Source of the DNA: Tigriopus californicus
Lineage: Eukaryota
Length of the DNA stretch: 43,082 nt
Assembly (NCBI RefSeq): GCF_007210705.1
Contig: NC_081440.1
Span: 5,296,144 to 5,339,225 of the forward strand
Direction: 5' to 3'
Below the pieces are notes generated by a model. The model was given only the letters and a program-made list of their open reading frames with translations, was not told the DNA's origin and made no database searches. The number at the start of each line of letters is the position of its first letter. Position 1 is the stretch's first letter. Made by a program: the position numbers and the translations under genes. Below are positions 31,881 to 34,800 of the stretch, piece by piece.

Positions 31881-34800
31881 ACATGGCAACAAGGCTGCAA
31901 TTTGGGAGTCTCTCATTGACAACAAGAAGCTCCCGTACATGGCAACCATACGCAACCTTAGGAATCTAATCCTTACTGGAATCGATGACGTCCATGTGCA
32001 AAAAGTTGCCAAATATATTTCCAACGAGAAGGCTGTGATTGGTAGTCGGATGTTTCCGTTTCAGTTCTACACGGCCTTCGATGTTTTGCGAGATCTTGAT
32101 GTATTCAAAGACAAAACCATCAATCAATCTGATCTGCTCAATACTAAAGGCATCAAGACTAAACCAAAAGGAGTCAAAACTTTTTCAGAAGCAGCGTTGA
32201 AAAAGAAGATCTATCACAAATTGGTCAAACGAAAAGAAACCATGAACTCTGGGTCAATCAAGGTGTTTCAAGATGCCCTAGAAAAGGCTGTGGCCATTGC
32301 CTCGAATAACAACATTCCGCCCATAAAAGGAAGCACGCTGATATTATTTGCTTTCGGAACCGAATTGGGTGAGGATGCCAAGATACGACCTGTTCAGAAG
32401 CATTTAACCCCGTCTCAGATGTGTTGCCTAACAGCTGTCATGCTGGAGCATACATGCGAGGACTGTGAGATGGTCGCTTTTGGCCACAAAGAACAAGAAA
32501 TGGCTCCAATTGTCCAAGATATGGGCCTGTTGTCCAGTGCCAAGTTCCTCGCTAACTCTCGCATCAGTCGTTTGGCGACTTCCACCAGCGTGTTGTCCTT
32601 TGATTCTGGAGCTCTGGATGATTATCGAAGAAACGAGAAATGGATTGATAATCTAGTGGTTATCCATGGACCTTTGGCACAGAGTAATCTCGAGGACGGT
32701 ATGACCTCTTGGCTTGCCAAGTATAGGCATGGAGTCAATCCAGATCTTGTTTATGCAAATATCAACCTTGATGGAAGTAAAGCCCCGCCTCAATCGCGAA
32801 ATGCGAACGACATCTTCTTGGTCGGGTTCAGCGAGCAGATATTCCATGCCCTTTCAAATTCGAGTCGTGGCGGACAACTCGAGAGGATTGAAAGCATTGA
32901 TAGGAGATTCAAATTGGCCCCCTTAAAGAAGCCTCTTATCGACGTTCCAGCCCCGGAGATGCAGCTGACAGGAAGCCCCAAGAAATGGCGTCAAATCAGG
33001 GTGTTTGTCTCCTCCACTTTCACTGATATGCACGGTGAGAGGGATCTCATCAATCGCTTTGTCATGCCCGAATTGCAGAGGCGTGCTAAGTCTTTGCACA
33101 TGGATGTGCGAGCAATCGATTTGCGCTGGGGTATCCTCCCTTACGGCGAAAAGCACGACACCAACGAGGATAATGTATTCTCCTCATCACTCTGGAGAGG
33201 TGGCAACTTCAGGGGAGAAGCCAATGGCACGACTCAGGTCATGGCTTGCCTTCGTGAAATTGAAAAATGCCATTTGTTTATTGGCCTTTTAGGGGACCGT
33301 TATGGGTGGAAGCCCCCCCTCACGGCCTCCTCTTTTCTCTCAGAAAACGAATTATCCATGAAATTGGAAGCTTTGAAAGGCGAAATGGGCAGAGCCTCAA
33401 TAACGGAACTTGAAATGGAATATGCTGCCCTGCACAACCCAGAGGAAAGTCGGGACCGAGCATTCTTCTTCCTTCGGGACTCTTCACTTCTTAACGCTCA
33501 ATTGCCTCCTGACTACGCGCAGCTATTTAAGTGTCAAGACGAAGAAGATGAGCGAAGATTGCAATCACTAAAACAGCGAATTATCTCGAGTGGGTTGGAG
33601 GTTTTCAATGGCTATCCGGCGCACTTAGATGGCGGGGAAAATCAAGGCAAGCCCATCACGGTTGGACTTGAAGCCTTGGGCCAAAGGATATTGGATTCGT
33701 TGTGGAATTCCCTATTGAATTTGGATGAGAAAGCCAAAAGAGAAAATGAACAATCCAACCATACGAGCCATTCCGAGTTTCGCGATCACGAAGAGTATAG
33801 TTCGTACATCGCTTCCCACAAGTGTGTTTCTCGGTCCAAAATCGTCGATAACATTCATGAGTCTCTTGGCAGATTGTCAGGAGGCATTGTAGAGCTTACT
33901 GGTAATCCTGGAAGTGGTCTTTCCACTCTAATGTGCCAAAGCTTCAATGAAATGAAGAAAAGATTAACTCTTAGCGCTTCACAGAAAGGCGTGGATGGGC
34001 CTCCACTTTTGGTACCCTTTTTCTCGGCCTCCTCCCAAAATGGAACAGGAAGCATGCAGACTTTCCTCAAATATCTCGTCCAATCATTGTCTGAAATAGT
34101 TGATGGAAGAGGGCCCGGGGCTAGCACCAAATTCCAGGACCACGAACTTCAGCAACTAGACGCCAAGAGTTTGGGTGTAAAGGCTGCCTCATTGCTTAAC
34201 ACAGTCTCTGAAGTGATGACCTCTCGTGGCCGATCTGGCAAGAAACAAAAGTTGGTGTTGTTTGTGGATGGTCTGGAAGATTACATGGAACAGGCAAAAG
34301 TGTATTGGCTGCCACCCCAAATTTCCAACGGTGTAATTCTCGTCGTTTCGTCTCACTTTGGGAGCAAATGGAACAAACATCTTCAAGACCGAAAAGAGAA
34401 GGACCATCGAACCATCAGAGTTGGTCCTTTGACTTTATTGGAGAAGAAGGCCTTGGTAAGGCATAGTCTGGCGCAGAGAGGGAAAAAGTTGGACGAGACA
34501 GCTTTTAACAATGAGCTCAACTTATTGGTGAGCAAAAGGGATGCCTCCAATCCGGCGTACTTGAGCTTGCTAACCAATGAGATGGCTGGCTTTGGTGTCT
34601 TTGAAGACCTCCAATCTAAACTATCCATGGCAGGCAACACCATGTCCGAGTTGCTATCACAGATTCTGGAGCGATTGGAGATCGATCTGAATGAAGAACT
34701 CGTGGCCAATGCTATGTGCTGTCTGGCTCTGAGTGCCAAGTTAGGGTTGACTGAAAATGAGCTTCATTCCGCTCTGGCCCTTCTGAACACCTCCCCATTC

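Follow-up and report, generated by a model that had tools for sequence, protein, structure and literature searches.

Background

P-loop ATPases hold ATP by means of the lysine of their Walker A motif. Naturally degenerate P-loops have been described in several STAND proteins, among them rice Pb1 and some Arabidopsis NLRs, signalling independent of the P-loop has been reported for ADR1-L2 and NLRC4, and for such proteins a role as scaffold or helper has been suggested (PMC3478704). Here we analysed a stretch of 43,082 nucleotides of the genome of the harpacticoid copepod Tigriopus californicus (assembly GCF_007210705.1, contig NC_081440.1, positions 5,296,144 to 5,339,225 of the forward strand; hereafter the window), in which the orthologue of TEP1 (vault/telomerase protein component 1) carries a leucine at the position of the Walker A lysine. 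Its likeness to the plant proteins, a STAND function that would be kept without the canonical motif, is an analogy of mechanism and not a matter of membership, since those proteins belong to the NB-ARC subfamily, carry other effector domains and act as immune receptors, whereas the module studied here is a TEP1-type NACHT. Degenerate P-loops in STAND proteins are already known in kind; our literature search found no report of a loss of the Walker A lysine in TEP1 or in copepods. The present case adds an animal protein that is not an immune receptor to the few STAND proteins on record that survive with a degenerate P-loop.

The STAND switches of the TNL and APAF-1 kind resemble TEP1 in combining an effector (here a TIR-like NADase), a STAND module and a repeat sensor, and the ADP-bound form of APAF-1 is the best structural match of our model of the Tigriopus protein. 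In TNLs and APAF-1 nucleotide exchange drives oligomerisation, whereas Tigriopus TEP1 is without the lysine for that chemistry. One of three preprints of 2026 reportedly describes the DUF4062 domain of TEP1, also called TeTIR, as a TIR-like NADase. The other two show this activity and propose, as a still unproven model, that the nucleotide cycle of the NACHT module controls the NADase as in APAF-1 and plant TNLs (bioRxiv 10.64898/2026.09.21.753143; 10.64898/2026.05.01.722283). The NADase activity of human TEP1 depends on, or has been linked to, the residues F902, R914, R942 (in the RWG loop), C959, R976 and E1008 (bioRxiv 10.64898/2026.09.21.753143), and the RWG loop has been described as a gate of the active site (2026 TEP1 NADase preprint).

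Among copepods, the salmon louse Lepeophtheirus salmonis encodes a TEP1 of 2427 amino acids (LsTep1) on the opposite strand beside a gene for the major vault protein (MVP), and neither vPARP nor vault RNA was found in its genome (PMC11219742). The Tigriopus gene resembles LsTep1 as a copepod TEP1 of similar size with an opposite-strand MVP neighbour, and vault RNA is likewise absent from the Rfam matches in the window; the salmon louse differs by its several MVP paralogues (PMC11219742). In comparison with TEP1 of human, Tachypleus, Priapulus, Mizuhopecten and Lytechinus, the Tigriopus protein has the same architecture, NADase residues and link to MVP (here a genomic linkage only). It differs from them by the Lys-to-Leu change, an Arg-to-Ala change in an 'ELR' motif, the replacement of TeTIR Cys561 by alanine, an insert of about 25 residues behind the RWG loop and a NACHT module that escapes the Pfam NACHT model.

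Methods

The NACHT region was used to scan 1.84 billion representative proteins, which newly returned 148 proteins. A neighbour-joining tree was built from 62 TEP1-type sequences (510 columns, 100 bootstraps), and 8 lysine-less TEP1 proteins were contrasted column by column with 20 lysine-bearing ones. ORF residues 321-1154 were modelled with AlphaFold2; residues 341 and 457 of this segment correspond to Leu661 and Asp777. Domain-wise protein identity was used in place of dN/dS, which was uninformative, the only unsaturated DNA pairs (P0105/P0251 and P0136/P0266) differing by 0-4 substitutions in the nucleotide-binding domain (NBD). These analyses show the substitution itself, where it lies in the structure, how far it extends across the phylogeny and which residues have been kept or lost.

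Leucine at the Walker A lysine position

At positions 33901-33927 (+) the codons GGT AAT CCT GGA AGT GGT CTT TCC ACT encode GNPGSGLST, a degenerate Walker A motif, or P-loop, in frame within an uninterrupted open reading frame (ORF) of 2221 codons (31939-38604, +). The place of the lysine is taken by Leu661 (ORF numbering), whose codon CTT (33919-33921, +) is three nucleotide changes away from both AAA and AAG, so that a single-base error does not explain it. Walker B, LVLFVDGLED at 34252-34281 (+), is retained by sequence, alignment and model, and its Asp777 (D457 of the modelled segment) falls in an invariant column of the alignment of 66 sequences. The RefSeq protein XP_059091698.1 is 100% identical over the NACHT region and comes most likely from the same assembly.

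In four independent MAFFT alignments Leu661 stood in the lysine column of vertebrate and invertebrate TEP1 and of bacterial DUF4062-NACHT-TPR proteins. Among the 66 DUF4062-NACHT proteins aligned, at least 90% have lysine in this column, as do all 20 lysine-containing TEP1 proteins compared, and the vertebrate sequences of the comparison set have a P-loop of the form G-x-x-x-x-G-K-T. The AlphaFold2 model (mean pLDDT 84.9, pTM 0.86, local pLDDT about 96 around the P-loop) places strand beta1 at segment residues 329-335, followed by a loop and by helix alpha1, which starts exactly at the leucine (residue 341); the Walker B strand spans residues 452-457, with Asp457 as its last residue. Foldseek searches of the PDB with this model retrieved STAND ATPases, ADP-bound APAF-1 being the best match, followed by the plant NLR RPP1, Avs5, SAMD9, Dark and NLRP9. 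The predicted structure places Leu661 at the canonical position of the Walker A lysine, at the very start of the helix behind beta1.

A previous inspection of this DNA by sequence alone (the sequence-only reading) had taken GNPGSGLST for the homologous TEP1 P-loop with a Lys-to-Leu change, in a very long intact ORF with Walker B retained, and had suggested a structure prediction of the NACHT domain as a check. Alignments, ORF and model agree with it on each of these points. An alternative lysine-bearing P-loop was found neither by a scan of the whole Tigriopus TEP1 protein for GxxxxGK[ST] nor in the model.

Distribution of the lysine loss

A motif of the GxxxxGK[STAG] type was present in 115 of the 148 returned proteins. 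Most of the remaining 33 were fragments stopping short of the P-loop or had kept the Gly-Lys pair behind an altered first glycine. Twelve TEP1-like proteins, that of Tigriopus included, span the site without a lysine. Next to GNPGSGLST in Tigriopus, their P-loops read GKAGAGVST (P0105), GKPGSGSTS (P0001), GKQAAGTST (P0002), GKEGAGATS (P0104), KPGIGATS (P0106), KEGFGSTS (P0107), KPGTGVTS (P0123), GPPGAGSTA (P0119), CPQGAGTTA (P0158), GIPGMGISS (P0136) and GSPGTGLSS (P0209).

All of them except P0209, i.e. Tigriopus and ten others, formed one clade in 94 of the 100 neighbour-joining bootstraps. The residue at the lysine position is uncharged in all eleven (Leu, Val, Ser, Thr, Ala or Ile), with no Arg or Lys. 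The codons found at the site across the clade (CTT, TCC, ACC, TCC, GTC, ATT and GCA) are diverse, which fits a loss that is old and after which the position has drifted from one uncharged residue to another. Rare derived residues are shared within the clade, namely C561A, P899G and Q1140L, each in 8 of 8 sequences, and speak against its being purely a long-branch artefact.

The GK[ST] motif is kept in the horseshoe crab Tachypleus, the millipede Chamberlinius, Priapulus, the bivalves Mizuhopecten and Mya, the crinoid Anneissia and the sea urchin Lytechinus, and the fishes Polyodon and Hemitrygon. Since the named chelicerate and myriapod TEP1 proteins have the lysine, its loss took place inside Arthropoda, after chelicerates and myriapods had branched off. 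Judged from these sequences, the loss goes back to the ancestor of a deep TEP1 clade and is neither an error nor a private mutation of Tigriopus. An alignment of TEP1 orthologues, which the sequence-only reading had also proposed, thus reveals a lineage-wide change, with 11 of the 11 proteins of one clade lacking the lysine. This lysine-less clade is old and rich in species.

Its members other than Tigriopus were recovered from metagenome assemblies, those of Tara Oceans among them, from a JGI metagenome and from one NCBI genome. A sulfotransferase encoded on the contig of one lysine-less relative (L001) has its best named matches in T. californicus (51%) and T. kingsejongensis (49%), insects being slightly lower (46%). 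Malacostracans, branchiopods and winged insects are reported to lack vault genes, whereas each of the four copepod orders studied is reported to have them (PMC11219742). Because of these sulfotransferase matches and this distribution of vault genes, we consider the clade to be pancrustacean and most probably of copepod origin.

A Lys-to-Leu change was also seen in P0209 (L005 4662-4688, Logan run ERR14790941), where the codon is TTG. This protein groups with lysine-bearing sequences and never joins the lysine-less clade, so that its change is an independent second loss of the Walker A lysine.

Co-changed and retained residues of the STAND module

In the contrast of 8 lysine-less with 20 lysine-bearing proteins, the Walker A lysine was present in 100% of the latter and in none of the former, in which the column reads L/V/S/T/A/S/S/I. 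A second difference lies in helical domain 1 (HD1), where the arginine of an 'ELR' motif, present in 85% of the lysine-bearing proteins, is missing from all 8 lysine-less ones; the Tigriopus motif reads NEMA (34576-34587, +), with Ala883 (34585-34587, +) in place of the arginine. This arginine belongs to the majority-rule consensus of an alignment that includes bacterial DUF4062-NACHT proteins, and it may be a phosphate sensor of the TEP1-type NACHT subfamily. The proline of the HD1 motif 'NPLYL' is found in 95% of the lysine-bearing and in 4 of the 8 lysine-less proteins, the other 4 having alanine. Tigriopus keeps it (Pro872) as NPAYL at 34549-34563 (+). In NLRs, an HD1 proline of the GxP or PhhCW type stacks on adenine (PMC7583971); the TEP1 proline is equivalent by its position in HD1 only.

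Much of the remaining site is kept in the lysine-less proteins. Gly660 is present in all of them and Gly658 in all except P0002, which has Ala; position 662 is Ser or Thr and position 663 Ser, Thr or Ala. The Walker B Asp777 is kept in 7 of 8, a polar residue ending strand beta4 in 6 of 8, and the two conserved histidines of the helical domains are kept as well. The sensor-1 residue is an arginine in NLRs and APAF-1. In TEP1 generally this position, at the end of beta4, is a serine and not an arginine (Ser804 in Tigriopus).

By analogy with WNK kinases, a compensating Lys or Arg was sought. In the contrast of 8 with 20 proteins no basic residue of the NBD proved to be conserved specifically in the clade, and candidates were confined to helical domain 2 (HD2): K1066 and R1107, the latter a Leu in Tigriopus.

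The mean pairwise identity in the lysine-less core was 0.38 for the NBD and 0.48 for TeTIR, against 0.32 and 0.50, respectively, in lysine-bearing invertebrate TEP1. Identity of the NBD is thus undiminished in the lysine-less proteins, which indicates that the domain is not decaying and is conserved for some function. On the sequence evidence the pattern is that of a degenerate P-loop protein, with a catalytic residue lost and NBD conservation held across the clade.

A convergent co-loss of the lysine with the HD1 arginine and proline was considered as well and found unsupported, P0209 having retained both residues.

The TeTIR NADase domain

The TeTIR/DUF4062 TIR-like NADase domain (32980-33753, +) was delimited by Pfam and by alignment with the human domain structure 11gz. 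Mapped through the 11gz alignment, all six human NADase residues are present in Tigriopus and in 8 of 8 lysine-less proteins, the equivalent of E1008 being encoded at 33412-33414 (+) in Tigriopus. The NADase effector thus appears intact and would be active.

Directly after the RWG loop, the alignment reveals an insertion of about 25 residues (20-30 across its carriers; 33130-33213, +), common only to Tigriopus and its four closest lysine-less relatives. It is predicted to be disordered (pLDDT below 50, segment residues 78-105).

The cysteine of the TeTIR motif YPCxWGG, found in 95% of lysine-bearing TEP1, is an alanine in 8 of 8 lysine-less proteins (Ala561 in Tigriopus, 33619-33621, +). The Trp after this cysteine is likewise replaced in the lysine-less proteins.

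Interpretation

We propose that the Tigriopus module is a non-hydrolysing pseudo-ATPase NACHT scaffold whose controlling function has moved elsewhere, and we give this interpretation a probability of roughly 0.6. The NBD would no longer hydrolyse NTP, and the canonical switch by ADP/ATP exchange would be gone. The domain would persist as a structural and oligomerisation scaffold, through which an NADase effector that is still active would be joined to the TROVE-VWA part, which binds RNA and vaults, and to the WD40 sensor part. The NADase might then be controlled by ligand binding, by incorporation into vaults or by the modified RWG loop instead of a nucleotide cycle. The loss of hydrolysis, a weakened binding, the scaffold role and the NADase activity are what we infer here.

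The sequence-only reading had predicted an NTP-binding-defective, possibly pseudo-enzymatic NACHT module. As to the defect, this prediction gains support from the co-loss of the HD1 arginine and the partial loss of the proline; as to its extent, the kept glycines, Ser/Thr residues and Asp777, together with the conservation of the NBD, allow residual binding.

Several points weigh against the scaffold interpretation. The loss of binding and hydrolysis is deduced from one catalytic residue and two correlated changes, and a contact of the lost HD1 arginine with the nucleotide is itself a supposition. Tigriopus retains the HD1 proline. Gly658, Gly660, Ser/Thr at 662 and 663 and Asp777 have stayed conserved long after the loss of the lysine, which is better explained by a loop still wrapping a phosphate than by a nucleotide-free scaffold. 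P0209, in which the lysine was replaced by leucine independently, keeps the HD1 arginine and proline, so that these losses are not obligatorily coupled. The neighbour-joining tree is possibly affected by long-branch attraction, and the label 'copepod' for the other clade members was deduced from a neighbouring gene and the distribution of vault genes.

The best surviving alternative, which we regard as possible though clearly less probable, is that a nucleotide (ATP, ADP or dATP) is still bound in a non-canonical manner and that only hydrolysis or fast exchange has been lost. The nucleotide would be held by the backbone amides of the P-loop, by Mg2+ coordinated through Ser/Thr and by the Walker B Asp, and would act as a permanent structural cofactor or in a slow switch. 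The retention of G658/G660, [ST]662, [STA]663 and Asp777 in all or nearly all lysine-less proteins is what such binding would predict, and the undiminished conservation of the NBD within the clade, the Pro872 kept in Tigriopus and three others and the confidently modelled P-loop geometry agree with it. It is less easily reconciled with an uncharged residue, and no Arg or Lys, at the position in 11 of 11 proteins, with the loss of the HD1 arginine in 8 of 8 and of the proline in 4 of 8, with the disappearance of the first P-loop glycine from several members, and with the failure to find any basic NBD residue conserved in this clade alone that might compensate.

A further, speculative idea, which we hold to be rather unlikely, is that TEP1 of the copepod lineage has exchanged the ATP-driven STAND switch for another control of the NADase, in which the loop would bind an NAD-derived ligand or none and the insertion at the RWG gate, the counterpart of the BB loop, would be the regulator. 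If true, nature would have carried out an uncoupling experiment, according to which neither the NADase nor the vault function of TEP1 needs nucleotide hydrolysis by NACHT.

Less probable still is a repurposing of the glycine-rich loop for another phosphate ligand, such as ADP-ribose or NAD(P)+, by which feedback from the product or substrate of the NADase would replace the ATP switch. The arguments are circumstantial: Gly-x-Gly-x-[ST][ST] is conserved without the lysine, an NADase that appears to be active lies next to the module, and ADP-ribose has been reported bound inside vaults, although the reported site is the MVP shoulder and not TEP1 (bioRxiv 10.64898/2026.05.01.722283). In the contrast of 8 with 20 proteins, the NBD showed no new conserved residues for ligand binding.

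That the change is an error of sequencing or assembly, or that the gene is a pseudogene or a redundant paralogue free of constraint, is largely refuted. In favour of such an artefact or decay speak an exact look-up of the 2221-residue ORF product, which gave no other record or second assembly, and the RefSeq model, which carries the flag 'partial' and is doubtful at its 3' end. Against this stand the three changes that separate CTT from AAR, the uninterrupted 2221-codon ORF, the same loss in ten other independently assembled sequences, a domain conservation equal to that of lysine-bearing TEP1, and the conserved adjacency to MVP and a WSCD sulfotransferase (PMC11219742). The least probable explanation, a misalignment hiding a true lysine-bearing P-loop elsewhere in the domain, takes its cue from HMMER local alignments which, with the majority of TEP1 proteins, begin no earlier than Walker B, the stretch from Walker A to Walker B being divergent, and is excluded by the agreement of several alignments, the beta1-loop-alpha1 geometry of the model (pLDDT about 96) and the STAND fold matches, GxxxxGK[ST] being absent from the whole protein.

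A lysine-less clade with all NADase residues provides a direct comparative test of the model in which NACHT controls the NADase: either TEP1 function is independent of the nucleotide cycle, or copepods have evolved another control.

Gene identity and gene model

The gene is identified by sequence as the T. californicus orthologue of TEP1 because of the 100% identity of its NACHT region with XP_059091698.1 ('telomerase protein component 1-like, partial [Tigriopus californicus]', 2637 amino acids), its Pfam TEP1 architecture, the adjoining MVP gene and a nested gene whose product equals XP_059091738.1 of this species. NACHT-region phmmer E-values to named TEP1 orthologues ranged from 1e-44 to 1e-27. 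The order of domains is TROVE, a putative VWA-like region, the TeTIR/DUF4062 NADase, the NACHT-type STAND module and WD40 repeats.

By ORF, Pfam and gene model, a giant last exon (31879-38604, +) encodes the end of TROVE, the VWA-like region, TeTIR, NACHT and the WD40 propellers including the TEP1-specific C-terminal one. Upstream exons, located by tblastn of TEP1 proteins and by XP_059091698.1 within 25415-28767 (+), lie at about 25415-26146, 26227-26367, 26908-27201, 27926-28183 and 28612-28767; they encode the N-terminus and most of TROVE, the first beginning at 25415. The Pfam TROVE match on the giant exon (E=5.5e-15) accordingly covers the C-terminal third of the domain, the remainder lying on the upstream exons. 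In the VWA-like region the match to DUF5920 is below threshold (E=0.061), and the region aligns with the equivalent part of other TEP1 proteins. DUF4062 scores above the Pfam cutoff, directly upstream of NACHT and with its catalytic Glu present, and the only sequence match in the PDB is 11gz, the DUF4062 domain of human TEP1 (E=9e-31).

The STAND module consists of the NBD (33874-34428, +), assigned by the secondary structure of the AlphaFold2 model, the STAND fold and weak NPHP3_N and AAA_16 matches, and of HD1, a winged helix and HD2 (34435-35364, +), assigned by the model and alignment. In Pfam it is matched just by NPHP3_N and AAA_16, both slightly below their cutoffs; the Pfam NACHT family PF05729 gave no match over it. 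The WD40 beta-propellers (35434-38583, +; Pfam) include Beta-prop_TEP1_2nd (PF25047, 84.4 bits, just below the cutoff of 89) and Beta-prop_TEP1_C (PF25048, 64.3 bits against a cutoff of 32), with many matches of WD40 PF00400 above cutoff.

At about 38064-38604 (+) XP_059091698.1 departs from the long ORF after codon 2042 and joins a foreign tail rich in Ala, Tyr and Gly. The RefSeq model thereby loses the final 180 codons, including Beta-prop_TEP1_C (ORF residues 2138-2215), probably because a 3' splice was mis-predicted or the model is chimeric. In practical terms, the Pfam NACHT model overlooks this module and the RefSeq 3' end of TEP1 appears to be wrong.

Genomic neighbourhood

The MVP gene (21860-24700, -), recognised by Pfam Vault repeats, the MVP shoulder and the gene model, lies head-to-head with TEP1. 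The start codons of this divergent pair are about 0.7 kb apart, which suggests a shared bidirectional promoter. LsMvp2 and LsTep1 of the salmon louse have the same opposite-strand arrangement (PMC11219742), and the head-to-head order may be conserved across copepod orders.

Downstream, a WSCD-type sulfotransferase gene (TCAL_04080; 42907-43071, -) lies tail-to-tail with TEP1. The contigs of lysine-less relatives carry a sulfotransferase of this type at L001 14264-15325 (-) and L002 9255-9914 (-), and the gene is convergent with TEP1 at four loci, namely the window, L001, L002 and the contig of P0104. The TEP1-sulfotransferase microsynteny is thus conserved between Tigriopus and three lysine-less relatives.

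The 3.1-kb TEP1 intron that splits TROVE (28767-31879) contains, nested on the same strand, an intronless gene for a phospholipase B-like 2 (29109-30812, +; Pfam Phospholip_B, E=5.6e-179), identical to XP_059091738.1. A tRNA-Gly(TCC) gene (21028-21099, +) just past the 3' end of the MVP gene was the sole Rfam match in the window, where Rfam detected no vault RNA. At the start of the window, two adjacent ORFs (187-1677, +), the first with a weak match to MFS_1, are probably exons of a major-facilitator gene.

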